In this document: in pieces, positions 3,590 through 31,177 of the stretch | How positions within the stretch are numbered: the first letter of the stretch is position 1 | Layout: the number at the start of each line of letters is the position of its first letter | Virus genome (UHGV): UHGV-0367612 | Strand: one strand, 5' to 3' | Length of the DNA stretch: 64,000 bases | From: a virus | Notes under the pieces: generated by a model | Told to the model about the DNA's origin: nothing | The model's database searches: none | Seen by the model: the letters and a program-made list of their open reading frames with translations, nothing else | Made by a program: the position numbers and the translations under genes

Positions 3590-4052
3590 AGTAAGGTACT
3601 TTAATACCTATCCTACTTGCCATAGAACATATTCCCTTAAACAACATATCCATCACAGAACCATTTTGCCCATTTGAAGATAATAAATCTTTCAATGCTG
3701 TAGAGGTAGAATAGAACTCTACCTTAGTTGGGCCAGTCTCAATACTTTTAATATTTCCCCCATCAGGTTCTGAGTCTGGGTCTACCTCTGTTTCTCTGTT
3801 TGTATTACTACTTCCCCCTATGAAAGCTATGAATGATCCCATAGCTGCCATCTGAAAAGCATCATATACTACTAACTTCGCGATTAATGAGTTACACATA
3901 TCCTCGAAGTTTTCGCAACGTAACTCCTCTGGAATTGATTTGAAGCCTGGCTCCATAAACAATTCCCAATATTTCTTTTTACCTTGTACCCATTTAGAAT
4001 CAAGGGATAGGTTACCAGGAACCTCAAGGTCTATGTATTCATTAATTGTCAT
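3483..4052 (-). CDS. hypothetical virion/tail protein
   Basis: 189-aa ORF. Its 3' end overlaps the next ORF in the +1 frame. Confidence 0.3.
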   Translation of the reverse strand: MTINEYIDLEVPGNLSLDSKWVQGKKKYWELFMEPGFKSIPEELRCENFEDMCNSLIAKLVVYDAFQMAAMGSFIAFIGGSSNTNRETEVDPDSEPDGGNIKSIETGPTKVEFYSTSTALKDLLSSNGQNGSVMDMLFKGICSMASRIGIKVPYCDDDRSLYNNRFKVSGPRVQKFTGNRRRFHGLRRY

Positions 4053-4459
4053 AAGTCTATCTCAATCCAAACTTGTTCTTTTCTTTCGATGGCCTCATTG
4101 ATTCTCTTGTTCAACTCATCTGAGTATTTCCTTGAGTTAATCAATTGGCCTTTTTTCTTGTTCTCTCCCACCAAGATACATCCTAAAGTATCCTTAGGAG
4201 TATTACCAGGGTGTATCATGATACCGGTGAATTGTGGTACATTCTCTAAGTAAGGCATTACCCTTTTAAACTTAGAAGACATAGACATCACCACCTTATA
4301 TTTACCAGCTGGGATAGCTGTTTCTCCATAGACCTTCTTCTCACTGTTCAGGTCTCTTACCTTATCCTCTAACGTATCAGAGAATTTCTCACCATCTACC
4401 ATCAGAACTCCAATAGTATAGGTATCTTTTTTGTATAGCCTTTTAACTTCTAGCAACAT
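4049..4459 (-). CDS. hypothetical protein, possible cell-wall-active enzyme domain
   Basis: 136 aa. Segment 'IMIHPGNTPKDTLGCILVG' with His...Gly-Cys loosely resembles the His/Cys catalytic loop of L,D-transpeptidase/YkuD-type folds. Weak evidence. Confidence 0.2.
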   Translation of the reverse strand: MLLEVKRLYKKDTYTIGVLMVDGEKFSDTLEDKVRDLNSEKKVYGETAIPAGKYKVVMSMSSKFKRVMPYLENVPQFTGIMIHPGNTPKDTLGCILVGENKKKGQLINSRKYSDELNKRINEAIERKEQVWIEIDL

Positions 4460-5198
4460 TTTTGTATATATTATCTATGAACTCTGATCTTAATTGCTTG
4501 TAGAATATCTCTACGTTATTTTTAGCAACACGAGCATTATACCCGTCTTCGCAATATATTTGTTTTAACATTACTTCTTTCAATCTCTCTTTCCAGTTCT
4601 CTGGGATAAAGAAGCTTAATGGAGAGCCCTTGAATTTAAAACTCAAGGCTCTCTCTCGATCGTAAGCGACTATATTTGATGACAAAAGCTCAACTTTCTT
4701 TTCTATAGCTTCTCTGTTATCTATATGATTATCCCTTATAATTTGCTCCAAATAATTCACAACCCTTAATTGGCTTTTAGCAAAAAACATATCAGATAGA
4801 TCATCTACTTGCTTTGAAGAAATCTCATCTGATACCCCCTCTACTAAAGTTCTCAGTAACTGGGTGTGACCTTGTAAAAGGTTTCCTTGATCAATTAAAG
4901 TATTTCTCAACTCAGTTAACTGACCAATGTATTCCTTGTTAAAGGCATCTGATTTCCTGTTGTCCCTTATCATGTTAAGGAACATCACTATAAATCCTAT
5001 AAACAGGATTGCCATGGCAACTACCATGGCTGATTGTTCGTTTATTAACTTTGACATATTACCAACAGCATCTACTGTCTGTTGTAATCCTTCTTGTGGT
5101 GACAGTTGTAAAATCATTTTAGTTTGGTTATTAAAAGATTGGGAGGAGTATAAAAACCAGGCTAAAACTCCTCCCAAGTGGTGTGTGAAAGAACTCAA
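4443..5198 (-). CDS. membrane-anchored coiled-coil protein
   Basis: 251 aa. Hydrophobic helix 'AMVVAMAILFIGFIVMFLNMI' near the N-terminus, followed by a long predicted coiled-coil. Confidence 0.3.
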   Translation of the reverse strand: MSSFTHHLGGVLAWFLYSSQSFNNQTKMILQLSPQEGLQQTVDAVGNMSKLINEQSAMVVAMAILFIGFIVMFLNMIRDNRKSDAFNKEYIGQLTELRNTLIDQGNLLQGHTQLLRTLVEGVSDEISSKQVDDLSDMFFAKSQLRVVNYLEQIIRDNHIDNREAIEKKVELLSSNIVAYDRERALSFKFKGSPLSFFIPENWKERLKEVMLKQIYCEDGYNARVAKNNVEIFYKQLRSEFIDNIYKNVARS

Positions 5199-17192: not shown

Positions 17193-19655
17193 TTAAATCG
17201 GATTTGTTACTAAGTTTTTCTTACCTTTTCTGATATAGTTAGTTATGGCTTCAGCCATTATGCAGTCATCTGTGTATACTGCATCATCATCGTAGATGTT
17301 ATCATCGTTTGCCTTATCTTTACCCATTGCCACTGGCCTATTTCTGGAATCGAATATGAATGTATATGACTCATCCACAAAGAATTTGTTACATATATTC
17401 ACTTGGTCAAAACGGATATCTTCTTCTAACTCATCTATAATAATTGGTCTAGTGGATGTGGTTGTATACCAACCTGGGATATCTTCTACCTCAGGCTTAC
17501 TTTTACCTTTCTTTTTCAAGAGTTTTTTGGCGTAATACAAGTTAGGATAACCGTGATCCTGAATCTTAGAAGTTACTGCCAACCCAATATCATTTGATTC
17601 TGGTGCTATCAAAGCATTGTTGAAACGTTTACCGGTATGCATGAGGAGGTTTGCATACTTAGAGGGATTTATCTTTCCCCTAAAATAAGCTAACTCCTCC
17701 CCATACCGGTTCATAACAGAAAATGCAGAATAGTCGTTTGCTCTACCAATAGCAACGTCTGCTCCGATAAAGCATCTCTCACCAGGTTTAGCGAAACGTC
17801 GTATGAAAAGTTTCCCATTCTGTTCAATGGAAATATAATCATCTGGATAAGGTAAGCATTCCTCTATTGCTCTGATACAATTCAAATCGAATACCGTATT
17901 ACCTGAAGAAAGGAAGTCACCATCAATCTCCTGTGCTGTTCTCCTTGGACCCAGTGACTTAGCCATCGAGTTATACCACTCCTCGTTTCTTTCAGGGTGC
18001 ATTTGCCAATACAACCGAATAGGATTGAAATAACTATCTCCATTTTTGGCATCAACCCATTGTTTGTGAAAGAAGTTCCCAATACCCATTGGCGTGTTAT
18101 GGTTGATATACAGCGAGTTACATATATAAGATTGATCCTCTTCTACTGAAATATCATATATGTTCTCATAGGTGACGTTCACTAATTTTAACTTAGAAAT
18201 ATTCACCTTTGTAACCCTCTTGTTGTTTATAACTCTACTGATATATGAAGCATTTACTCTTAACCCTAATTCATCTTCAATCTCTCTCATAATAATCTTA
18301 GATGAACCATAGGAGTTACCATACTTTTGATACTTCTCTTTTATCTTACCTATCAATAAGATATCTGGAAATTTATCACCCACACTTGGAGCAACTTTAA
18401 ATGTGGGGGAAAGGTTTACTGCTCTCTTAGTATTTTCTGATTGAGATAGTATTTGTAAGTTTGTTACATAATTATGAGAATGGTCACAATCTATATGGTC
18501 TACTACATAACCTTCTGGAATATCACCTATAAATAATTTAGCTACTAATCTTGATACTGAAAAGTTCTTACTCTCCCCATTTGCCCAAAGCTTAAACCTA
18601 TAATACCCAGAATTACCTAGTATGGGTTCTTTCTCTATCAGAGAATCACCATCCTTTATATATAACTTACCCCAGTTAGATAACATATATTTTGGATAAC
18701 CAGGTATATTCTTGAATATCTCAATACTTGGTTTCTCGGTTTTTTTTGTTTCTAACTTCTTAAACCCTGTATCAAAGGTTATTATATTTAAACCTTCTCT
18801 AACAATTCTACCTACTGACCTCCAACCCTCTGTAGTATATAATTTATGAGCTGGAGTACATCTCAAAGTATTTCCTTGTTCATCTTCTACTTCCCAGGTT
18901 TTCAATATACCTTTGTTCACAGAGTGTGTTACTTTTCTCCACTTACCAGTATGTGATAATACTTCTATCCCTAAATGAGATATATCTTTTATCCCCATTT
19001 CTTTTGGGCATACAGTATCAATTCTCAATGGTCCTTCTTTTGTAACTATTTCAGTATCACCTGTAACGCAAGAGTTTAGGATAGCACTACCTCCAGTTGA
19101 TAGAGTGGGGAATGCTGCTGCCCAGATCCTATCAGCCCATCTTACAATTGCCGCCTCGTCTATCACAAGAAGAGAAACTGCCTCTGAACGACCGGCTTCT
19201 TCTGTTGTGGGGACTGATGTTATTGATGACCCATTCACAAACTCAAGTACTGTGGCAGTACCAAATGAGTCTCCACGTATTTGAGTTACAGGAGTTTGTA
19301 ACCATTCTGGCAGGTTTTTGTACATGTACTTAATCCTTTTCAAAACTCTCTTTGCAACCATATCCTTGATCGAGATAATCTGGATATTCTTGTTGTCATT
19401 AAACATGGCTAACCATAAGCAAAAGAAAGCGATAAGCTCTGTTAAACCTGCCTGACGAAACTTAAGTATGATGTTGAAACGGTTGTTCAGAAAATTCCAG
19501 AGAACTGCTCTCTGGTATTCGTAGAGTTTGAATTGTACTTTACCCTTAACAGGATGAATGATATACACAAAGTTTGCAAGGTAGAATGGATTTACCTTGC
19601 ATGTCCTGTATATTTCAAATTGTTCCTTCGTAAGAGTTACTATCTTTTTCTCCAT
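17193..19655 (-). CDS. terL: terminase large subunit interrupted by an intein
   Basis: Walker A-like 'KFRQAGLTE' and Walker B 'LLVIDEAA' at the N-terminus. The C-terminal nuclease/extein part resumes after 'HN|T'. A 325-aa insertion begins 'CVTGDTEI' and ends '...SLYINHN'. An 820-aa TerL is plausible only once the intein is accounted for. Confidence 0.8.
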   Translation of the reverse strand: MEKKIVTLTKEQFEIYRTCKVNPFYLANFVYIIHPVKGKVQFKLYEYQRAVLWNFLNNRFNIILKFRQAGLTELIAFFCLWLAMFNDNKNIQIISIKDMVAKRVLKRIKYMYKNLPEWLQTPVTQIRGDSFGTATVLEFVNGSSITSVPTTEEAGRSEAVSLLVIDEAAIVRWADRIWAAAFPTLSTGGSAILNSCVTGDTEIVTKEGPLRIDTVCPKEMGIKDISHLGIEVLSHTGKWRKVTHSVNKGILKTWEVEDEQGNTLRCTPAHKLYTTEGWRSVGRIVREGLNIITFDTGFKKLETKKTEKPSIEIFKNIPGYPKYMLSNWGKLYIKDGDSLIEKEPILGNSGYYRFKLWANGESKNFSVSRLVAKLFIGDIPEGYVVDHIDCDHSHNYVTNLQILSQSENTKRAVNLSPTFKVAPSVGDKFPDILLIGKIKEKYQKYGNSYGSSKIIMREIEDELGLRVNASYISRVINNKRVTKVNISKLKLVNVTYENIYDISVEEDQSYICNSLYINHNTPMGIGNFFHKQWVDAKNGDSYFNPIRLYWQMHPERNEEWYNSMAKSLGPRRTAQEIDGDFLSSGNTVFDLNCIRAIEECLPYPDDYISIEQNGKLFIRRFAKPGERCFIGADVAIGRANDYSAFSVMNRYGEELAYFRGKINPSKYANLLMHTGKRFNNALIAPESNDIGLAVTSKIQDHGYPNLYYAKKLLKKKGKSKPEVEDIPGWYTTTSTRPIIIDELEEDIRFDQVNICNKFFVDESYTFIFDSRNRPVAMGKDKANDDNIYDDDAVYTDDCIMAEAITNYIRKGKKNLVTNPI
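18096..19070 (-). mobile_element. intein with HNH homing-endonuclease domain inside terL
   Basis: Splicing block A 'C-VTGDTEIV', C-terminal block 'IYDISVEE...LYINHN' followed by the +1 Thr. The internal HNH motif is 'VVDHIDCDHSHNYVTNLQILSQSENTKRAV'. Confidence 0.75.
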
Positions 19656-23744: not shown

Positions 23745-24809
23745 ATGTTACAGTACTTAGAGTTATTAAAGAAAGTCCATGTTTTAGGGACTTATAGAAA
23801 GCCGGCAAGAGAAGGGATGCCTGCTTCTAAGAATTTATTCGGTGAGATGATGGAAATTGATTTACGTGATGGGTTTCCATTATTAACTACTAAAAAGATG
23901 GCTTGGAATGCTATCAGGGTAGAGTTATTATGGTTCTTGAGAGGAATACCAAACCTAAGGTATTTATGGAGATATAATGTACATATCTGGGACCAAGATG
24001 CTTATAGGTTTTACAAGAGAAAATGTGAGACTTATACGAGGACTCCCATATCTACTTACATGAAGACTCCATTATCTTATGAGGGTTGGTTAGAGAGATT
24101 ATGGGTTATGAGAAATGGTTCTTTCTGGGAAAGAAATCAGGACTTTGACAAGATGACCTATATGGGAGCAGTTTACCCAGCTCAATGGAGAGGTACATTT
24201 GTTTTTGGAGGGTCTTCTCATACTGATCAAATCCTATACATGATAGAGAATATCCGAAATAATCCTACGAGTAGATACCATATAGTTGATGCTTGGAATC
24301 CTATGGATATTGACCTGAACAAAAGGACTCCAGTGTTAGCTTTACCACCTTGTCACATGAGCCACCAAATCTTGGTAGATGTGAAGAGTGGTGAGTTTGA
24401 TATGCTCATGTACCAGAGAAGTGCAGATATTTTCTTGGGAGTACCATTTAACATAGCTAGTTATGCTTTACTATGTTACTTCTATAGCATGATGACTGGA
24501 TATCAACCTAGGTATCTCAAAATGATTTTTGGAAGCGTTGATTTATATGAAACTCATTTTGAGCAAGCAAGAGTTCAATTGAACAGAGATCCCAAGTTAT
24601 TACCGAGATTAAAACTATTACCAAATGAGAATGGTGTTATGGATAGAGTGATGGAGTTCAATATGAAGGCTAAGGAGTATTATGATAACCCCACTCATTC
24701 GAAGTTAAATGAAGTGGTCAATACATTACAACCTTCAGACTTTGAGTTAGTGGGATATGACCCACATCCTGCAATAAAAGGGAAACTAGATACTGGGTTA
24801 GGAATCTAA
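23745..24809 (+). CDS. thyA: thymidylate synthase (ThyA) family enzyme
   Basis: Conserved ThyA blocks 'DGFPLLTTKK', 'ELLWFLRG', 'LPPCHMSHQ' (catalytic Cys) and 'YQRSADIFLGVPFNIASYALL' (Asn of the dUMP-specificity position present), plus C-terminal 'GYDPHP'. Carries a ~48-aa insertion in the folate loop and R->Y at the second Arg of the DSRR motif ('TSRYHIV'). Confidence 0.8.
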   Translation: MLQYLELLKKVHVLGTYRKPAREGMPASKNLFGEMMEIDLRDGFPLLTTKKMAWNAIRVELLWFLRGIPNLRYLWRYNVHIWDQDAYRFYKRKCETYTRTPISTYMKTPLSYEGWLERLWVMRNGSFWERNQDFDKMTYMGAVYPAQWRGTFVFGGSSHTDQILYMIENIRNNPTSRYHIVDAWNPMDIDLNKRTPVLALPPCHMSHQILVDVKSGEFDMLMYQRSADIFLGVPFNIASYALLCYFYSMMTGYQPRYLKMIFGSVDLYETHFEQARVQLNRDPKLLPRLKLLPNENGVMDRVMEFNMKAKEYYDNPTHSKLNEVVNTLQPSDFELVGYDPHPAIKGKLDTGLGI

Positions 24810-24870
24810 CATAATATGTTATAGAGGCATTGTTATTTATACTGTATCTAAGTTTTGAATCTAAACAACA

Positions 24871-24906
24871 AAGGGGACCGTCTAGATGACAGACCCCTTC
24901 TTTTTG
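24871..24906. terminator. bidirectional Rho-independent terminator between convergent genes
   Basis: Stem aagggg...cccctt with an inner gtc/gac pair, followed by CTTTTTG. Confidence 0.55.
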
Positions 24907-24909
24907 TGA

Positions 24910-25092
24910 TTACTTATTTACTGGACGGATGTACTTGTCATAGAACATCTTTGCCCACCAACCTATCACTACTCCCGCTGCAAATGATACCAGAGCATTA
25001 ACTGATACCCAGAAAGGAGCACACTTAACGAACACTAAAGCTACGATGATGATAGCTACTACCACCAACCAAAAAATCTGTTTCTTTTTCAT
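24910..25092 (-). CDS. small two-TM membrane protein
   Basis: 60 aa. Sequence 'IFWLVVVAIIIVALVFV' ... 'LVSFAAGVVIGWWA'. Holin-like size and topology, but no lysin is adjacent. Confidence 0.3.
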   Translation of the reverse strand: MKKKQIFWLVVVAIIIVALVFVKCAPFWVSVNALVSFAAGVVIGWWAKMFYDKYIRPVNK

Positions 25093-25105
25093 GATAAGAA
25101 TTTAT

Positions 25106-26452
25106 TTAGTTAACAAATGGATCTTCATTTGAGAATACCTGTACATTACCAATTACCCAACCAACTTGCTCACTTGGTTTTAATATAGTGGCTACATTCA
25201 CATAACTTATGGTTACTTGATTTTTACCATCAACCTGACTTACCTTGTGAACTGGAAAATATAACTGATACTCAGTGTCACTGATTTTAATTACTTGAGA
25301 ACAATTCAAAGTATAAACTTGGCCACTTGAGTTAGCTGTTTTGGGATAAGTTAGAATGGTATTTCTAAGAATTTCTTCTAAAGTATACCCAGCTTGTGTT
25401 AGTGTAGATATCCCACTAATAACTGTACCTCCAGAAGTACCTCTTTGACCAGTTCCAGTTACTGGATTGCCATTTACCATAAATATGGCTTGTATGGTTA
25501 ATTTCCTTGAAAGGAGCATAGCACTACTCAATATTCTCCCTTGGTTTGCTGATAATGGAGCCTGTTTATCGGCTGAACCAAGGTGATCTACCACTATATT
25601 ACCGGTTAAAACTGGGGTATTGTACCTTATTCCTCTCTCGACATACTCTAAACTCTTCTGATTGAAAGTAATGGATAGGTAATATGAAATACTGTTATAA
25701 ACAACAGTCAATACTAATTCACCGGTTTCCCATGCTTGAGGATTATCTTTAAGGTTTGTGATAGTTATATTAACAGGTATATATCCTCGTACATTATCTG
25801 AAGCCTTGATTAGGAATTGTGTTTCCTTCTTATTTAGTTCAGTAATCTCTTGTATAGTCCCAATCCTCTCATTAATAAAGGCAGCCCAAGAAGCTACACT
25901 ATCCTCTACCTCGTCATTGAACAGGTTATATAGGGTATTTGGTAATACATGGACCTCACCACTACCACCCCCTATATCCGATAAGTAGGCTATTTGGTTT
26001 GCCTCTTCTCCAGTTTGACCAGCTTCTTGAACAGTTGGTCGAACTCCCTTAGGAGTGTTCAGGTTAATGGGTAATTCTGAAGTACCGAGATCAACTACAT
26101 CCCACTCATTTACCATGGCAATGTTCACACTACCCAAACCCTCTTTCTTAGCCACTCCTGTGATAAGGTCACCATTCTTCAGTTGAATGGCTAACCTGTT
26201 TGGGTGTTGTTCATCCTTAGCTTCAACATACTTCACCACATCATCAGATGTAGTGGCTATCTTACCAGTATCTTCATATTCACCAGTTTCATTGTTGTAT
26301 ATCCACCAGTTATTATTCTCTCCAATCATTGGAGATTTACCTGGTGCTCCCTTCACTATATTACCCATAGTGATTTGAGCAAATACTCTCTCGTTTGTTA
26401 CAACTGGAAAGATATTTAGCTCTCCATTATAAATTTCTAGCTTACAAATCAT
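25106..26452 (-). CDS. fiber-like structural protein with short collagen-like stretch
   Basis: 448 aa. Contains 'GNIVKGAPGKSPMIGEN' (G-X-Y triplets), is Thr/Gly/Asn-rich, and has a beta-rich C-terminus. Confidence 0.3.
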   Translation of the reverse strand: MICKLEIYNGELNIFPVVTNERVFAQITMGNIVKGAPGKSPMIGENNNWWIYNNETGEYEDTGKIATTSDDVVKYVEAKDEQHPNRLAIQLKNGDLITGVAKKEGLGSVNIAMVNEWDVVDLGTSELPINLNTPKGVRPTVQEAGQTGEEANQIAYLSDIGGGSGEVHVLPNTLYNLFNDEVEDSVASWAAFINERIGTIQEITELNKKETQFLIKASDNVRGYIPVNITITNLKDNPQAWETGELVLTVVYNSISYYLSITFNQKSLEYVERGIRYNTPVLTGNIVVDHLGSADKQAPLSANQGRILSSAMLLSRKLTIQAIFMVNGNPVTGTGQRGTSGGTVISGISTLTQAGYTLEEILRNTILTYPKTANSSGQVYTLNCSQVIKISDTEYQLYFPVHKVSQVDGKNQVTISYVNVATILKPSEQVGWVIGNVQVFSNEDPFVN

Positions 26453-26458
26453 AGCAAA

Positions 26459-26863
26459 TTATATTTTTCCTATTACTGCATATTTTACCTCTAGAATGTT
26501 AGAGAATACACCTATGATTGAAGTCTCAACATTCTCAGCCTCTGATACCGTTACCTGCATCACTTGGATATCATAAACTCCATCCATATCCTTAGTCTCA
26601 TCAGGAGTGAAGTTTATGAGGAGTTTGTTCCCATTCACTCCCATTTTCCCGTATTGAAGGTCTGGGTATTCTGGAATTGGGTCTAAGATTAATGGCATGG
26701 GATTTTGGTATATAGCTACAACTTGTGAACCTTGAGCCACTACAACTCTCATTACCTTGTCTTCTAAAGTGATTGGGGTGAGTCCATCATCCTCATACAT
26801 AGCTAACACTATACCAACCGTCTCACCGGTATAAATGGTATGTTTTTTGTTACAACTGTTCAT
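26459..26863 (-). CDS. hypothetical protein
   Basis: 134-aa ORF upstream of and co-oriented with the fiber-like gene. Confidence 0.3.
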   Translation of the reverse strand: MNSCNKKHTIYTGETVGIVLAMYEDDGLTPITLEDKVMRVVVAQGSQVVAIYQNPMPLILDPIPEYPDLQYGKMGVNGNKLLINFTPDETKDMDGVYDIQVMQVTVSEAENVETSIIGVFSNILEVKYAVIGKI

Positions 26864-26993
26864 GTTCGTTAATATTTTAGTTTATATGATGATACAATAT
26901 GGTCTGGACAACCTACATAGGATAAAATATAGCCCTAGTAATGTTACAAGTGTACTTACTTCCCACTAATACATATAAATTAAAACCAGGATT

Positions 26994-27272
26994 ATGAAGT
27001 CAGTAGAAGAGTATTTCTATTTATACTATGATCTAAAAGATGAGATGATAAGGTTATCCAAAGAGGGTAATGATATAAGGAAAGCTTTTATCACCAAAAT
27101 TTACTGTGTCCCAAAGAATGAGGTTAAGAGTAATTATCAGGACCTGAAGAAAATTGTGAGGACTTTTAAACAAGATGGGTTTTGGGCAAAGGCTTCTAAA
27201 AATAGAAATGGGATTTTAAGGATAGTAGTATTTTTCAAAAAACCAAGTATAATAGTTAGGATATTAATATGA
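26994..27272 (+). CDS. hypothetical protein
   Basis: 92-aa ORF, first of the second plus-strand block. Confidence 0.3.
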   Translation: MKSVEEYFYLYYDLKDEMIRLSKEGNDIRKAFITKIYCVPKNEVKSNYQDLKKIVRTFKQDGFWAKASKNRNGILRIVVFFKKPSIIVRILI

Positions 27273-27664
27273 AAATTAAAGTTTTGATTAGGTACTTAGA
27301 CATTGATAAGAAAGGTAATAAGACTTACACTAAAAAACCCATAAGTAAGTTCTCTGCTAAAGTGATAGTTTTAAAAGGTGGGCCATGGCTTGATAAATTG
27401 ATACTGAAGTTTAACAATCAAGAGGTAATGGCGTTCGAGTATAACGAGCAAACTCTTACCTTCCTAAAGAAGATTACTAGTGAGTACTTTGCAGTAACTA
27501 AAGTGTATAGATGTCCATTTTACAGCTATTATCTAGTAAGTCGTTATTCGAAGGAGATAGTATCAAACTTGAGTGATTTACTGAAGCAATGTCATTACAT
27601 GGATTTAATAACAACAGAAGAATATTGGCAAAACCAAATACCCGTAAAGTTATGGAAAGAATAA
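27269..27664 (+). CDS. hypothetical protein
   Basis: 131-aa ORF, 4-nt overlap with the upstream gene. Confidence 0.3.
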   Translation: MKIKVLIRYLDIDKKGNKTYTKKPISKFSAKVIVLKGGPWLDKLILKFNNQEVMAFEYNEQTLTFLKKITSEYFAVTKVYRCPFYSYYLVSRYSKEIVSNLSDLLKQCHYMDLITTEEYWQNQIPVKLWKE

Positions 27665-28053
27665 GTATAGAAGAAGCTAGGGAGATAACCCAGGTAGCAA
27701 AAACAGAGTATGACAAAAAGGTATCTCAACGAATGAAGGATGAGATACTGTGCCTTACTAATAGTATCATTTACCAAGCTAATGGGGGAAAATATGATAC
27801 TCACAATAGTATACGTTTCAGAGATAAAGATGGTGTTACCCTTGACAAATACTGCATGAAAAGTATAGTGTCCTATTTCAAGGATCAAGGTTATAAGGTA
27901 GAATGGGGTGAAAATAACCAATCAGACAGGTACTGGATAAGGATATCTTGGTACAAATCTCCAAAGATCACCTGGTACCAATGGTTGATTCTTATTGGGA
28001 TACCAGCCATGTTAATTTATGGATTTATTAAATTATTGAGTTATGGGATATAA
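27589..28053 (+). CDS. hypothetical membrane-anchored protein
   Basis: 154 aa with C-terminal TM 'WYQWLILIGIPAMLIYGFIKLL'. The start may be internal. Confidence 0.3.
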   Translation: MSLHGFNNNRRILAKPNTRKVMERISIEEAREITQVAKTEYDKKVSQRMKDEILCLTNSIIYQANGGKYDTHNSIRFRDKDGVTLDKYCMKSIVSYFKDQGYKVEWGENNQSDRYWIRISWYKSPKITWYQWLILIGIPAMLIYGFIKLLSYGI

Positions 28054-28402
28054 TGCAAGAAAAGCCTACAAGGATGTAGTGAAATCTGGGATAAACTCCA
28101 AAAGGGATAAGGATAGGTATATTATGTTACAAGAAATCCTGACCAAGATTGAGGGAAGAGCCAAACAAGGTGAAAGGTCAATTGTGATAGAGGAACCCAT
28201 AAATAGTTGGGATTTTATTTTACCGGTAGTGGAGAAGCTAAGAGAATTGGGATTTACAGTAGACCCAAAATTCTTACAATCCAGAGGTTGGGTATTAGCT
28301 ATCTATTGGAATAACAAACCCAGGAATAAAGGAGAAAACGTGATCATTCTGGGATTGGTTTTATTAGTTTTAACCTGGTTAATTTGGTTGATATGGCTTT
28401 AG
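28043..28402 (+). CDS. hypothetical membrane-anchored protein
   Basis: 119 aa with C-terminal TM 'VIILGLVLLVLTWLIWLIWL'. Confidence 0.3.
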   Translation: MGYNARKAYKDVVKSGINSKRDKDRYIMLQEILTKIEGRAKQGERSIVIEEPINSWDFILPVVEKLRELGFTVDPKFLQSRGWVLAIYWNNKPRNKGENVIILGLVLLVLTWLIWLIWL

Positions 28403-28638
28403 ATAGAGATGAAAAACTCCTGAAGAAGATAGCTAAATTCCCATCAAAGAAACAGTGGGATGATTTGGCCTATTCTTGGTTGAAGGAAAGGTTTCCTAAT
28501 GCAGAGGATATAATGATCAGGGAAGCAAAATTCAACCAAGGGATATTCCACGTAGTGGCTTACATCGACTGGCAGAAGGTGAGTTTCACGGTTAATTCAA
28601 CAGCACTTTTGTTTCACCTTATTAAAAAGTATTTATAG
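28384..28638 (+). CDS. hypothetical protein
   Basis: 84-aa ORF. Confidence 0.25.
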   Translation: MVDMALDRDEKLLKKIAKFPSKKQWDDLAYSWLKERFPNAEDIMIREAKFNQGIFHVVAYIDWQKVSFTVNSTALLFHLIKKYL

Positions 28639-28639
28639 T

Positions 28640-28861
28640 ATGGCTTTAGAAATGGACAAGGTCTTAGGTAATATCCTAAAAGAAAGGTTCCCACAATATC
28701 CAATGAGGTTATTGTCCTATACCGATACAGGGACTGGATGGGAAGTAAGGGCTATGGTAAAGAACTCCAACATGGCTACAGTATTAGAGGATGGATTCAA
28801 TATCCTAATCTCAGATAGGGAGGTTTTAATTCACTTAATCCAAAATTATACCTGGATATGA
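28640..28861 (+). CDS. hypothetical protein
   Basis: 73-aa ORF. Confidence 0.25.
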   Translation: MALEMDKVLGNILKERFPQYPMRLLSYTDTGTGWEVRAMVKNSNMATVLEDGFNILISDREVLIHLIQNYTWI

Positions 28862-29067
28862 ACAGGGAAGTTAAATGTGAGTTGGTAGGATCCATATCCC
28901 CAATTATATGTGGGATGTTATTCATATTTGGATACTGGATTGGAGGTGGGAGTAGTGAAGACGTTTACGCTTCAGCAATCCTTTTAACCCTGATCTCAGC
29001 AGTTTGGGGAGGTTTAATGGGTAGTATTTACGGGTCACCAAACGATGGCCCCATTTGTGGGCCGTAA
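28858..29067 (+). CDS. small membrane protein
   Basis: 69 aa, Gly-rich with two hydrophobic helices. Confidence 0.3.
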   Translation: MNREVKCELVGSISPIICGMLFIFGYWIGGGSSEDVYASAILLTLISAVWGGLMGSIYGSPNDGPICGP

Positions 29068-29086
29068 AAAGTGGTGGAAATTTTTT

Positions 29087-29117
29087 GGAGGATATGGATA
29101 ACGTATCCTCTTTTTTG
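29087..29117 (+). terminator. Rho-independent terminator of plus-strand block
   Basis: Hairpin gaggata-N9-tatcctc followed by TTTTTTG. Confidence 0.6.
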
Positions 29118-29277
29118 TATGTATAGGGTGATGGGGTGGCTTTGAATCCTTGTCCTTGATCCTTGTTTGTGGGGCTTGGGAAAGTCGTAGCTGTAGGGGG
29201 GCCGGTCGGTAGGATATAATTAAAAAATAAGTGTTAATTTTTTAGGGGACAAATTAACACTTATCTAATTTAAAAAT

Positions 29278-29388
29278 TTAACGTTTTTCTTTCTTGAAAC
29301 ACACGTACAAAATGCAAACAATAACTAAAATAATAATCTGCATAATGAAAGAAAGTATTTCAATTAATGCGTTTAAAATAGCGTCCAT
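29278..29388 (-). CDS. 36-aa hydrophobic peptide with charged C-terminus (type I toxin-like)
   Basis: Not in the ORF track (below 60 aa). Minus-strand translation is MDAILNALIEILSFIMQIIILVIVCILYVCFKKEKR*. The stop is followed by an 11-bp perfect inverted repeat hairpin (29229-29262) and a T-run. Confidence 0.35.
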   Translation of the reverse strand: MDAILNALIEILSFIMQIIILVIVCILYVCFKKEKR

Positions 29389-29558
29389 ATCTAAAAACAA
29401 TTATAGATAAATATATCATATTTCTTTTTGAAAATTTTTTCATAGAAATATTTTTTTAGTTTTAAAATCTTTTTCTCCATTCTAAAATAATTGAATACAC
29501 GAAACAAATAAAAATGAGTAGTACAAATGTACTACTCACTAATGTAAAAATATTCATT

Positions 29559-29939
29559 TTATTTTGCGGTCTGTTTGAAATTCTTTGATTTTGCAGTCTG
29601 CAAACGTGCAAACAATTTTTTCATTGCGTCCTCTTTTTCGAGTGTCGAAGTATTATATAGCTCTTTTGCGCTATTATACTCTCCTTGCACTTCTACAATC
29701 GTGTCGTGTAGTTCTTTCAACTCGACTAACGTTTTTTTGTCAACGTTAAATGCAAAATCAAGAATGAATTTTTGATACAATTTGCGTACACTCTTTTTTT
29801 CGTGCGTTTTTGAATCCATTTTCGCTAAATTATTAGGAATCTCTAGTCCTAATAATTTATACAACTTTTCGTAGTTAATTTTACCTTTGTTGTTACTACG
29901 ATTTACAACGCTTTTAGAAAATTCTTGAAATAAACTCAT
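29559..29939 (-). CDS. hypothetical protein with non-phage codon usage
   Basis: The likely start is MSLFQEFSKS... because the annotated upstream extension overlaps a hairpin (ggtgaac...gtcacc). Coiled-coil, Lys-rich protein. Frequent ACG/GCG/TCG/CGC codons are absent from the rest of the window. A terminator hairpin agtagtaca-aa-tgtactact (29517-29536) with a T-run follows on the minus strand. Confidence 0.4.
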   Translation of the reverse strand: MSLFQEFSKSVVNRSNNKGKINYEKLYKLLGLEIPNNLAKMDSKTHEKKSVRKLYQKFILDFAFNVDKKTLVELKELHDTIVEVQGEYNSAKELYNTSTLEKEDAMKKLFARLQTAKSKNFKQTAK

Positions 29940-30232
29940 AATATAAATTATTAAAAATAAAAGGTGAACTTTTAAATTTGGTGTCACCTCATAGCCAAAT
30001 TATATTTTTACATTTTTTCAACATTTCAAAGAACTTGTTTTTTTATCGTTTTTCGATATACGAATGTACAATTAATTTTTGAACTACAAAAATATTTGCA
30101 AGAAAAAATCAAATTATTTTCATGAAAAAATTAATTTTATTTTCATTCTAAATTAAATAAAAATCGAAAAATTTTTGATTAAAAATTTGTTTTTGTCAAA
30201 AAAATTTCGTAGATTCAATATATAAAATATCC

Positions 30233-30400
30233 ACCTGCCCGCCTGCCCACCCTATTCCTAATTCCAATCTAGCTCTGGCTTCCGCTCCTAGTCCTGGTAT
30301 CTTCTGAGCCCGCCTACCTTCTTAGCCTTAAATTAAACCCGCCTTCCTATTCCTAACCTATTAACATTAACCCAATAGCTCTCACCTTTCAGTTCTCCGG
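30233..30400. repeat. polypyrimidine (plus-strand) tract with iteron-like direct repeats
   Basis: About 170 nt of almost exclusively C/T on the plus strand. CCCGCCT occurs three times (30238, 30309, 30338). CCTATTCCTAA occurs twice (30252, 30347). Confidence 0.5.
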
Positions 30401-30661
30401 TTAACTGATAAGAAGGCTTTAAGATAACTAGGATATAAGGCCTTATGACCACTAATTATGATATCTAGTTGATCAACTCTTATCAAACATGTAAATATTC
30501 TCATAGAATAACTACTTTTCTTCTAGAAATTCATTCTGGCTGTCCTAAAATGACAGAAAAGCGAGCTTTCATTCAGTCAAACTTTCTCACACAATCAATC
30601 ACAAAAATAGAGTGGCTGTATGGGTCACTCTATCATTACATCTAATACAGCTCTTACAGCC

Positions 30662-31177
30662 TCAGTTCTTTTTCTCAAGCATTTTCACTACCTGATATCC
30701 GACCTTTGCCTGGATAACATCCATCCGGTAATCCTGGAATTTACTGTAGTGGGTGTACTCTTCCAGTTCCCTTGTCTTGATAACCTTCTCAATCCTGTTG
30801 ATGAAATCCTGAACATCAACCTCATATTGTGCCTGATGTAGTACCTGATAGTACTGGGATATCAGATCCGGAATATAGTCGCAGAGCTCATCATCCTCTG
30901 TAACCTCCATAGCCCTCTCATAAACTAAGAGTCCCAACATATTCAGATAAGCTGTTAACCTTGTTTCCGGTACGTTGACTTCCCATATATTATCCGGTAA
31001 ACATCCAAATACATCCATTATGGGTTCCATCTCTTCCCAATCCTGAGGGTCGTAAATCTTGATAGCCTTGAGCCCTGTGATCTTCTCTGCCCAAGCTAAC
31101 AACTCATATTCTCCGGTTGAACCTACAGTTAATAACTTAATTTCCTTGATTCCCTGATTTGCTTGTTCGTTCTCCAT
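30662..31177 (-). CDS. hypothetical acidic protein
   Basis: 171-aa ORF, preceded by a conserved early promoter copy at 31205-31242. Confidence 0.4.
   Translation of the reverse strand: MENEQANQGIKEIKLLTVGSTGEYELLAWAEKITGLKAIKIYDPQDWEEMEPIMDVFGCLPDNIWEVNVPETRLTAYLNMLGLLVYERAMEVTEDDELCDYIPDLISQYYQVLHQAQYEVDVQDFINRIEKVIKTRELEEYTHYSKFQDYRMDVIQAKVGYQVVKMLEKKN

Follow-up and report, generated by a model that had tools for sequence, protein, structure and literature searches.

The 64,000-nucleotide stretch of UHGV virus genome UHGV-0367612 analyzed here (hereafter, the window) carries on its minus strand a short open reading frame (ORF), ORF-C, which encodes a peptide of 36 amino acids (aa). ORF-C is the fourth and last cistron of an operon in which it follows the gene for a 126-aa protein and two other micro-ORFs, ORF-A and ORF-B, and is followed by a terminator (Table 1). 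Its pattern of substitution among related phages indicates that ORF-C is almost certainly a real protein-coding gene. We lean somewhat toward the view that its product is a translated single-pass membrane micropeptide, made from the last position of a coupled operon, with an accessory role in modifying the envelope of the infected cell; the specific role is the weakest link in this proposal. ORF-C is probably not a phage lysis trigger or an RNA-controlled toxin.

A sequence-only reading of the window had described a 36-aa hydrophobic peptide with a KKEKR tail, and the minus-strand frame that runs from 29388 to 29278 indeed yields MDAILNALIEILSFIMQIIILVIVCILYVCFKKEKR. This peptide has a single long hydrophobic stretch (17-residue Kyte-Doolittle maximum, 3.19), with a hydrophobic span of residues 3-34, as well as the KKEKR tail. 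When the whole window was scanned for intergenic ORFs of 25-60 codons that begin with ATG and contain a strongly hydrophobic 17-residue stretch, only two were found. Both of them are in this cassette, the second one sitting 74 nt upstream of ORF-C. Two other parts of the description need correction. The peptide is not unannotated, as an identical 36-aa protein is present in NCBI nr and UniRef (DAG92373.1 / A0A8S5VMQ9) under the name 'MAG TPA: hypothetical protein [Ackermannviridae sp.]', and it does not lie in a foreign AT-rich island, as the GC content of the window is 0.34-0.41 throughout and all 64 kb are phage DNA.

The locus could be retrieved from 23 distinct contigs of related phages (IMG/VR, JGI and ENA metagenomes and Logan assemblies). 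These fall into four clades, in which the neighboring 126-aa protein is 94-98%, ~85%, ~75% and ~71% identical to that of the window. Absence or non-conservation in relatives had been named as grounds for refutation by the sequence-only reading, and ORF-C was found to be intact in 21 of the 23 contigs, with its frame, ATG and stop codon maintained in all four clades. In one of the two exceptions, L018, ORF-C is cut by what is probably a chimeric assembly junction, where the phage is joined inside ORF-C to a bacterial TypA-like gene with a Bacteroides-type promoter; in the other, L022, it has been replaced. A further contig, L017, terminates in Nextera adaptor sequence. The length of the ORF-C peptide varies from 29 to 43 aa across the relatives, the variants including MDAILNALIEILSFIMQIIILVIVCILYVCFKKEKR in the window clade, MDAIINALLEIISFVIQILILVIVCILYVCFKKEKR in L002, MFIEILSFILQIIILIILCVLYVCFKRDK (29 aa) in L007, MFIELFLEILSFILQIIILIVLCILYVCFKRDK in L019 and MTILFITVFEALKDTLIDVVSFLLPIAVCTIIFFLYVCFKRDR in L010. 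Residues S13, F14, I18 and L27-K32 (LYVCFK) are invariant, as is the motif LYVCFK[KR][ED][KR].

Comparison of the window with L002 revealed 13 synonymous and 6 non-synonymous differences in ORF-C, with proportions of synonymous (pS) and non-synonymous (pN) change of 0.58 and 0.07, respectively. Among nine distinct DNA versions of the gene, 16, 9 and 27 of 29 sites were variable at codon positions 1, 2 and 3, respectively. Because an antisense frame that shares the wobble positions would imitate a coding pattern, we computed pN/pS for all six frames. This analysis bears directly on the alternative that ORF-C is not a gene, but a chance ORF in AT-rich DNA that has been kept by an overlapping RNA element or by an antisense ORF. 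ORF-C is very short, and in most relatives no stop codon interrupts the wobble-sharing antisense frame, which had the second lowest ratios (pN/pS reduced to 0.23-0.66), both of which would be expected if that alternative were correct. However, the sense frame was the more constrained in every pair, its pN/pS of 0.12-0.33 being the lowest of the six frames in 6 of 6 pairs, and the antisense frame is interrupted by a stop codon in L010 and has no ATG in L002. Furthermore, the start, the stop, the hydrophobicity and the C-terminal motif of ORF-C are kept despite low DNA identity, and several independent annotation sources call this ORF. The six-frame substitution analysis thus appears already to have largely refuted the idea that ORF-C is not a gene, which we consider extremely improbable.

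Searches of protein databases gave a narrow distribution for ORF-C. A word-indexed search of 5.8 billion proteins, for which the query was the 40-aa TTG-extended ORF-C frame, returned nine clusters, all at least 78% identical. An exhaustive profile search with HMMER, covering 1.84 billion representatives, returned three clusters, one for each clade in which ORF-C is long enough to be called. Both searches missed the 29-aa form found in the commonest clade. ORF-C is present as a single copy per phage genome. Genomes of 185,579 bacterial and archaeal species (GTDB, one genome per species) were scanned twice, once at the DNA level for the LYVCFK motif, and no relative of the ORF-C peptide or of the 126-aa protein was found, consistent with a phage that does not integrate. 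When ORF-C was compared with Pfam, PHROGs and NCBIfam at E values up to 1, no toxin, holin or other specific family was found, only generic transmembrane (TM) matches, and a profile search of PDB found nothing. From these searches, the ORF-C family is confined to the phage lineage of the window.

The genes that precede ORF-C are maintained along with it. The 126-aa protein is represented by 148 protein clusters, all 69-98% identical and located on phage contigs of ~82-85 kb. Its AlphaFold2 model (predicted local distance difference test score, 69) has five helices; Foldseek found nothing in PDB below E = 2.9, and there was no significant match in Pfam, PHROG or NCBIfam. ORF-A and ORF-B are present in every clade, and both are below the 60-aa floor of the ORF track. 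The sequence of ORF-A diverges fast (pN/pS 0.15-0.96), and its single hydrophobic helix and EWRKRF tail are kept in all clades. ORF-B is well constrained, its pN/pS being 0.05-0.37, with 8, 12 and 19 of 29 sites variable at codon positions 1, 2 and 3, respectively, and the N-terminal 18 residues of its product are moderately amphipathic (hydrophobic moment 0.48-0.57).

The four cistrons are tightly packed. In the window's own clade, the ATG of ORF-A lies 0-1 nt past the stop codon of the 126-aa gene (1 nt in the window); in the L007 clade, a spacer of ~50 nt is found ahead of ORF-A. The ATG of ORF-B is within the 3' end of ORF-A, with an overlap of 19 nt, and the stop codon of ORF-B is separated from the ATG of ORF-C by 1-2 nt in three clades (2 nt in the window); in L010, the two ORFs overlap by 29 nt. 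This arrangement is that expected of translational coupling, and it leaves ORF-C without a promoter, untranslated region (UTR) or ribosome-binding region of its own. The five-base Shine-Dalgarno motif was found at 4 of the 83 window genes, and the region from -14 to -10 is A-rich. Since 73 of the 83 genes have no Shine-Dalgarno sequence, none would be expected at the cistrons of the operon. A scarcity of Shine-Dalgarno motifs together with an A-rich region from -14 to -10 is the pattern of the Bacteroidota.

The contig L022 (ORCN01000054.1, locus ~2085-2300) indicates that the last cistron can be exchanged. In this contig, ORF-A, ORF-B and the terminator are kept, and ORF-C is exactly replaced by an unrelated soluble ORF of 69 aa, which begins with MDSNKIKEIASQLF. 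The replacement ORF is found in five protein clusters, none of them annotated, and because of this recurrence the swap is not an assembly artifact. These observations suggest that ORF-C occupies an accessory, exchangeable slot at the end of the operon.

The order of the micro-ORFs also raised the question of whether ORF-A, ORF-B and ORF-C might be pieces of one split or recoded protein of ~96 aa (first TM helix, basic loop, second TM helix and charged tail), either joined by ribosomal frameshifting or left from the fission of an ancestor like a class II holin. The succession of a TM segment, a basic segment, a TM segment and a charged tail resembles a two-helix membrane protein, the overlap of ORF-A and ORF-B falls in an A-rich stretch (GAATGGAGAAAAAGATTTT), and ORF-B and ORF-C are only 1-2 nt apart. 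In addition, the frame of ORF-B is shifted in contig L024 by an assembly oddity, the presence of two further A bases in one of its A-runs. In contrast, each of the three ORFs retains an ATG of its own throughout the clades, inspection of the two junctions revealed no canonical X XXY YYZ slippery heptamer, and neither the spacer of the L007 clade nor the replacement of ORF-C independently of ORF-A and ORF-B in L022 would be expected of a single protein. It is therefore very unlikely that the three micro-ORFs are parts of one polypeptide, and we consider them as separate cistrons below.

Approximately 700 nt of non-coding DNA lie upstream of the operon and include two tandem boxes of the Bacteroides type, TATTTTTG and TACATTCG, the second of which has the form TAYATTTG in every relative. 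When all clades were aligned, the best-conserved upstream block was CTTGCAAnTATTTTTGTAG...TAYATTTG (30061-30102), located in otherwise divergent non-coding DNA; this extended block did not recur elsewhere in the window. TAnnTTTG is reportedly the -7 promoter consensus of Bacteroides, described by Bayley and coworkers in 2000. A box that fits this consensus, TATATTTG, is found in identical form upstream of nine further minus-strand non-structural genes between 31 and 59 kb, at a distance of 26-38 nt from the start codon for 8 of the 9 genes and of 113 nt for the remaining one (44049). The structural half of the window contains only two intergenic TAnnTTTG boxes, neither of which is TATATTTG. 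The density of TAnnTTTG per kb per strand was 1.59 in intergenic DNA versus 0.44 within genes. The TATATTTG class thus looks like the host-type promoter class of this phage and, because the two tandem boxes belong to this class, the operon appears to be read by the host polymerase together with the non-structural genes.

The leader of the operon is unusually long, ~110-150 nt, and carries a conserved GTTCTTTGAAAT motif. It also contains a weak stem-loop, whose arms differ and yet still pair in L001, L002 and L012 (AGGTGA/TCACCT versus TCGTAG/CTACGA). A second structure, a terminator-like hairpin with a T-run, is located inside ORF-A; its loop is the TACATTTG box, 43 nt before the ATG of ORF-B. 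This hairpin is found only in the clades of the window/L001 and of L002, is missing from those of L007 and L010 and shows a compensatory G-C to A-T change in L012. Transcription of the micro-ORFs might be attenuated at this hairpin or started anew from it.

At the other end of the operon, the sequence-only reading had noted a perfect 11-bp inverted repeat and a T-run immediately after the ORF-C stop codon. The repeat and the T-run (with TTTTTT) are present, but the perfect stem is 14 bp long and starts 13 nt past the TAA. Similarly, the hairpin had been taken as a terminator belonging to the peptide gene itself; it is a real terminator 3' of ORF-C, but one that ends a four-cistron operon and not a stand-alone gene. 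The free energy of the terminator RNA was -15.8 kcal/mol, as compared to -4.3 ± 1.9 in shuffled sequences (z = -6.1; 0 of 200 shuffles as good). The stem covaries, with a compensatory A-T to G-C change in L002, and in L010 and L011 a wholly different perfect stem of 15 bp holds the same loop motif, TTTGTCCCC. Neither this loop motif nor the motif ATATCCTACCG recurred above chance elsewhere in the window.

Table 1. Features of the ORF-C operon and related features of the window.
Feature	Position	Strand	Description
126-aa gene (first cistron)	29559..29939	minus	126-aa protein, predicted all-helical
ORF-A	29462..29557	minus	31-aa hydrophobic peptide with predicted TM helix, MNIFTLVSSTFVLLIFICFVYSIILEWRKRF
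ORF-B	29391..29480	minus	29-aa lysine-rich peptide, MEKKILKLKKYFYEKIFKKKYDIFIYNCF; net charge +6
ORF-C	29278..29388	minus	36-aa predicted single-pass membrane micropeptide, MDAILNALIEILSFIMQIIILVIVCILYVCFKKEKR; coordinates include the stop codon
Tandem Bacteroides-type -7 boxes	30061..30094	minus	TATTTTTG (30087-30094) and TACATTCG (30061-30068)
Leader stem-loop	29961..29990	minus	followed by U-rich tract; 22 nt ahead of the start codon of the first cistron; weak, -7.1 kcal/mol
Hairpin inside ORF-A	29513..29540	minus	terminator-like, with T-run; -17.6 kcal/mol, z = -5.4
Operon intrinsic terminator	29219..29264	minus	14-bp perfect stem (29251-29264 / 29227-29240), 10-nt loop with TTTGTCCCC, T-run 29219-29226
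TATATTTG boxes	31209, 34996, 35891, 41225, 41726, 44049, 45455, 47650, 58545	minus	upstream of non-structural genes
Lysin candidate	4049-4459	minus	136-aa DUF5675 protein, E = 1.8e-34

Proteins encoded in the window include a capsid protein, TerL, a family A DNA polymerase (PolA), RecA, gp32, a ligase and thymidylate synthase. Phages that carry ORF-C have genomes of ~84 kb, and the contigs whose titles give a source are from human-gut metagenomes. A megablast comparison of the 6-kb neighborhood with 50,697 GenBank phage records gave no match. The nearest capsid match, MT121964.1, is 47% identical; this genome has no homologue of the 126-aa gene, and no equivalent micro-ORF cassette was seen at the syntenic place. 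The "Flandersviridae" described by Benler et al. (PMC8008677) have a median genome size of 85.2 kb, a TerL that branches beside the Ackermannviridae, and PolA. Spacers of clustered regularly interspaced short palindromic repeats connect them to Bacteroides and Parabacteroides hosts, and they are devoid of lysogeny genes and contain 20 kb of ORFs, in one block, that could not be assigned (PMC8008677). From the agreement with this description, we infer that the window belongs to an uncultured "Flandersviridae"-like phage, which is probably virulent and whose host is probably a Bacteroides species or another member of the Bacteroidota of the human gut. Residues 8-190 of TerL (17193-19655, minus) match the ATPase of T4 gp17, and the protein is interrupted by an intein-like segment with an HNH homing endonuclease (residues ~196-520). 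The thymidylate synthase family was matched twice, by a 354-aa protein at 23745-24809 (plus; E = 9e-71) and, more weakly (E = 1e-15), in the replication module at 33-64 kb.

The sequence-only reading had interpreted the peptide as similar to a type I toxin or a holin. Its description of a genuine small single-helix gene with a charged tail and a terminator holds, but both of these labels fail on context. Fst/RNA II of the pAD1 par locus and TxpA/RatA and BsrG/SR4 of Bacillus subtilis prophages are type I toxins with 3'-overlapping antisense RNAs. Like ORF-C, such toxins are hydrophobic peptides of ~30-40 aa whose C-terminus is charged and whose stop codon is followed directly by a terminator hairpin that could in principle be shared with a convergent transcript. 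ORF-C might accordingly be a membrane toxin whose mRNA is targeted at its 3' end by a convergent antisense RNA, as in txpA/RatA, bsrG/SR4 and par of pAD1. The architecture of the peptide, small and hydrophobic with a single helix, fits this possibility, and the hairpin is a perfect palindrome. A plus-strand motif, GGTAGGATATAAT (29208-29220), abuts the hairpin and points into the cassette; it is conserved as GGTAGG(A/G)TATA(A/T)(T/A), with a -10-like core of TATAAT, TATATT or TATAAA depending on the clade. An antisense start just beyond a shared hairpin is the geometry of txpA/RatA or bsrG/SR4.

In contrast to these similarities, the surroundings of ORF-C differ from those of a type I locus. 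The -35 region at the TATAAT-like motif is poor, and the motif is absent from the list given by a plus-strand sigma-70 scan, which yielded only weak matches (9 of 12) of the kind that shuffled sequences also give. From 24202 to 29881 the plus strand lacks TAnnTTTG boxes, so that no host-type antisense promoter was found there, and the hairpin is not followed by a T-run on this strand. An Rfam scan of 28800-30800 at E values up to 1 gave three sub-threshold chance hits only. Type I toxin genes have their own promoter and a structured 5' UTR, whereas the DNA upstream of ORF-C is coding and ORF-C, as the last gene of an operon, is coupled to ORF-B. Because the synonymous sites of ORF-C are near saturation (27 of 29 third positions vary), there is no room inside it for a conserved antisense element. 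Nor is there a relation in sequence, as ORF-C is not a member of the Fst, Ldr, TisB, Hok/Gef, Ibs, ShoB or TxpA families (Pfam, NCBIfam and PHROGs at E values up to 1; PDB profile). Finally, type I toxins reside on bacterial chromosomes, plasmids or prophages, often in multiple copies, while ORF-C is carried by a probably virulent Bacteroides phage, has no homologue in the bacterial genomes searched and has not been seen in a prophage. Thus, there is little reason to expect that ORF-C is part of a type I toxin-antitoxin-like system, and we think this very doubtful. A toxin-like or pore-like physical action of the peptide on the membrane is possible.

A role in lysis must be weighed in a similar manner. 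Holins have a TM domain followed by a charged hydrophilic C-terminal domain, and holins and pinholins, e.g., phage 21 S68 and T7 gp17.5, are like ORF-C in being phage-encoded TM helices with a short, highly charged cytoplasmic tail. In a lysis-related module, ORF-C would act as a miniature holin, pinholin or antiholin, by itself or together with ORF-A, and depolarize the inner membrane, ORF-B would attack the outer membrane as a cationic peptide, similar to the 'disruptin' gp28 of phiKT, and the operon would set or assist the timing of lysis. The gp28 protein, which is said to be 56 aa long, is like ORF-B, and not ORF-C, in that it is a small, strongly cationic and partly amphipathic phage peptide; ORF-B, with its 29 aa, is outside a lysis cassette and has no sequence similarity to gp28, so that the two are likened by composition only. 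Nevertheless, gp28 provides a precedent for a cationic, antimicrobial-type phage peptide that disrupts the outer membrane during lysis (bioRxiv 10.1101/515445). The net charge and the moderately amphipathic N-terminal residues of ORF-B are in keeping with such a function, as is the highly charged tail that follows the TM helix of ORF-C, and the lysis systems of Bacteroides phages are poorly known.

Several observations argue against this function. The only lysin-like gene found by Pfam among the 83 window ORFs, which leave ~20 kb of the genome outside, encodes a DUF5675 protein and is 25 kb away from ORF-C. The DUF5675 domain has been grouped structurally with C82 peptidases and treated as a lysin (2026 preprint). 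Directly upstream of this gene (4049-5117 region, minus) is its own membrane-protein neighbor, a 224-aa protein with an N-terminal TM segment and a faint PHROG holin match. Another holin candidate more conventional than ORF-C is encoded where the tail-fiber block ends, a 60-aa membrane protein with two helices (24910-25092, minus). ORF-C itself, at 29-43 aa, is well below holin size (approximately half that of the smallest holins), has no dual-start motif with an intervening basic residue and gave no match to a PHROG 'lysis' or Pfam holin family. Moreover, its promoter boxes are of the non-structural class, and it was dispensable in the L022 lineage, whereas a holin should be indispensable. 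A lysis-related function for ORF-C is hence unlikely; we do not rate it lower because ~20 kb of the genome are outside of the window and because the cationic ORF-B recalls the phiKT 'disruptin'.

We return to the proposal that ORF-C is an accessory micropeptide of the envelope, which we favor over a toxin or lysis function because of the non-structural promoter class of the operon, its variable surroundings, rich in small membrane-anchored proteins, and the swappable slot that ORF-C occupies. In this model, the host RNA polymerase would read the operon from the Bacteroides-type boxes and end at the terminator hairpin. Because the promoter class is shared with non-structural genes, the operon would probably be on before the late and lysis genes, in early or middle infection. 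By the positive-inside rule, ORF-C would insert in the host inner membrane with its N-terminus out and the KKEKR tail in the cytoplasm. There it would most likely act by means of specific contacts between its helix and those of a host membrane protein, of its operon partners or of both, thereby altering the envelope of the infected cell, e.g., for superinfection exclusion or to block a membrane-bound host function.

The proposal of helix-helix contacts is based on a polar stripe and on the invariant juxtamembrane motif LYVCFK+-+. Polar residues D2, N6, E10, S13 and Q17 of ORF-C are located within an 80-degree arc of the helical wheel, and across the clades position 10 is always E or D, position 13 is S and position 17 is Q or P. 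The constraint on ORF-C is position-specific (pN/pS of ~0.1, tighter than for ORF-A), which is more in line with specific binding between helices than with bulk damage to the membrane. In bacteria, MgrB, AcrZ, MgtS and SgrT are chromosomal regulatory membrane micropeptides with known partners. They are single-helix peptides of 30-50 aa that bind a specific larger membrane protein and do not form pores, and the position-specific purifying selection on ORF-C is consistent with a mode of action of this kind. Unlike them, ORF-C is borne by a phage.

Some results do not sit easily with this model. The amphipathic moment of the whole ORF-C peptide was not significant when compared with shuffled sequences (193 of 2000), and those of the whole ORF-A and ORF-B peptides were likewise not significant, for which reason we make claims of local amphipathicity only; the polar stripe comes from one helical-wheel calculation. 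The argument for timing draws on a promoter consensus rather than on transcripts, and the long leader, its stem-loop and the ORF-A hairpin suggest a regulation more complex than 'early and constitutive' expression. A trio of TM, cationic and TM peptides could serve lysis equally well, and the 126-aa partner gave no functional clue (AlphaFold2/Foldseek, PHROG).

ORF-C can also be compared with other small TM proteins of phages, to which it corresponds in the features of the class: it has fewer than 50 codons, it is under purifying selection, it has one predicted TM helix, and it is found in a phage genome, where it is lineage-conserved and located in an accessory region. Thousands of small phage gene families have been predicted by Fremin et al. 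(Cell Rep 2022, as cited in ref. 32 of PMC11364881), and small proteins of the human microbiome have been described (bioRxiv 10.1101/494179). Like ORF-C, such proteins have been found through comparative genomics and are annotated as 'hypothetical protein' at most. ORF-C differs from them as a separate orphan family with no PHROG match, set in a fixed micro-ORF trio behind the 126-aa gene. Two other identities were considered for ORF-C and rejected. A lipoprotein would require a basic N-terminus, which is missing, and the residue before Cys25 is valine instead of Gly, Ala or Ser. A secreted signal pro-peptide of the AimP/Phr type would also require a basic N-region, and the host is Gram-negative.

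The DNA on both sides of the operon has additional features. Downstream, a convergent plus-strand block (26994-29067) contains seven small genes, three of which encode proteins with C-terminal transmembrane anchors. L001 lacks the 69-aa two-helix ORF of this block (28858-29067, plus), and other genes are found there in the L007 and L010 clades. The DNA between the two convergent terminators (29112-29226) is rich in C on the minus strand and consists of an array of degenerate repeats (TACAGCTACG, AAACAAGGAT, CAAGGAT), whose copy number and length (~130-330 nt) vary among the relatives. Inverted copies of the array core (three GCTGTA units with a 9-nt period) are found at 30637-30660, ahead of the terminator of the upstream 171-aa gene. 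The array could hold protein-binding sites, an origin or a non-coding RNA. Flanking inverted repeats of an invertible or mobile segment were sought, and none was found beyond the short GCTGTA/TACAGC motif. A GC-rich 11-mer (GCCCGCCTGCC and variants) occurs four times at 30229-30347, within the otherwise AT-rich 700-nt region upstream of the operon; relatives conserve this region in part.

Small hydrophobic 'hypothetical proteins' are common in phages, and one more of them, already present in databases, would be ordinary in itself. What is new here is that ORF-C is real and tightly constrained, that it belongs to a fixed trio of micro-ORFs with a defined operon anatomy, and that the last position of this operon is exchangeable. 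ORF-C is also an example of the real phage genes that are overlooked by gene tracks with a 60-aa floor. As a speculation that we put forward with little confidence, the 126-aa protein and the three coupled micropeptides might constitute a previously undescribed membrane-targeting module of abundant Bacteroides gut phages, in which the last position, filled by ORF-C or by its 69-aa alternative, is an exchangeable specificity or arms-race slot. If so, the module could be, e.g., a new superinfection-exclusion or anti-defense complex, or a 'split' holin-like device. Among the phages of the human gut, those like the "Flandersviridae" reportedly rank with the most often detected (PMC8008677). The constrained micropeptide trio, with its defined promoter, leader and terminator, is located in the functionally dark ~20 kb of these genomes, and its peptides of 29-36 aa offer a small, synthesizable target for learning how uncultured phages manipulate the Bacteroides envelope.

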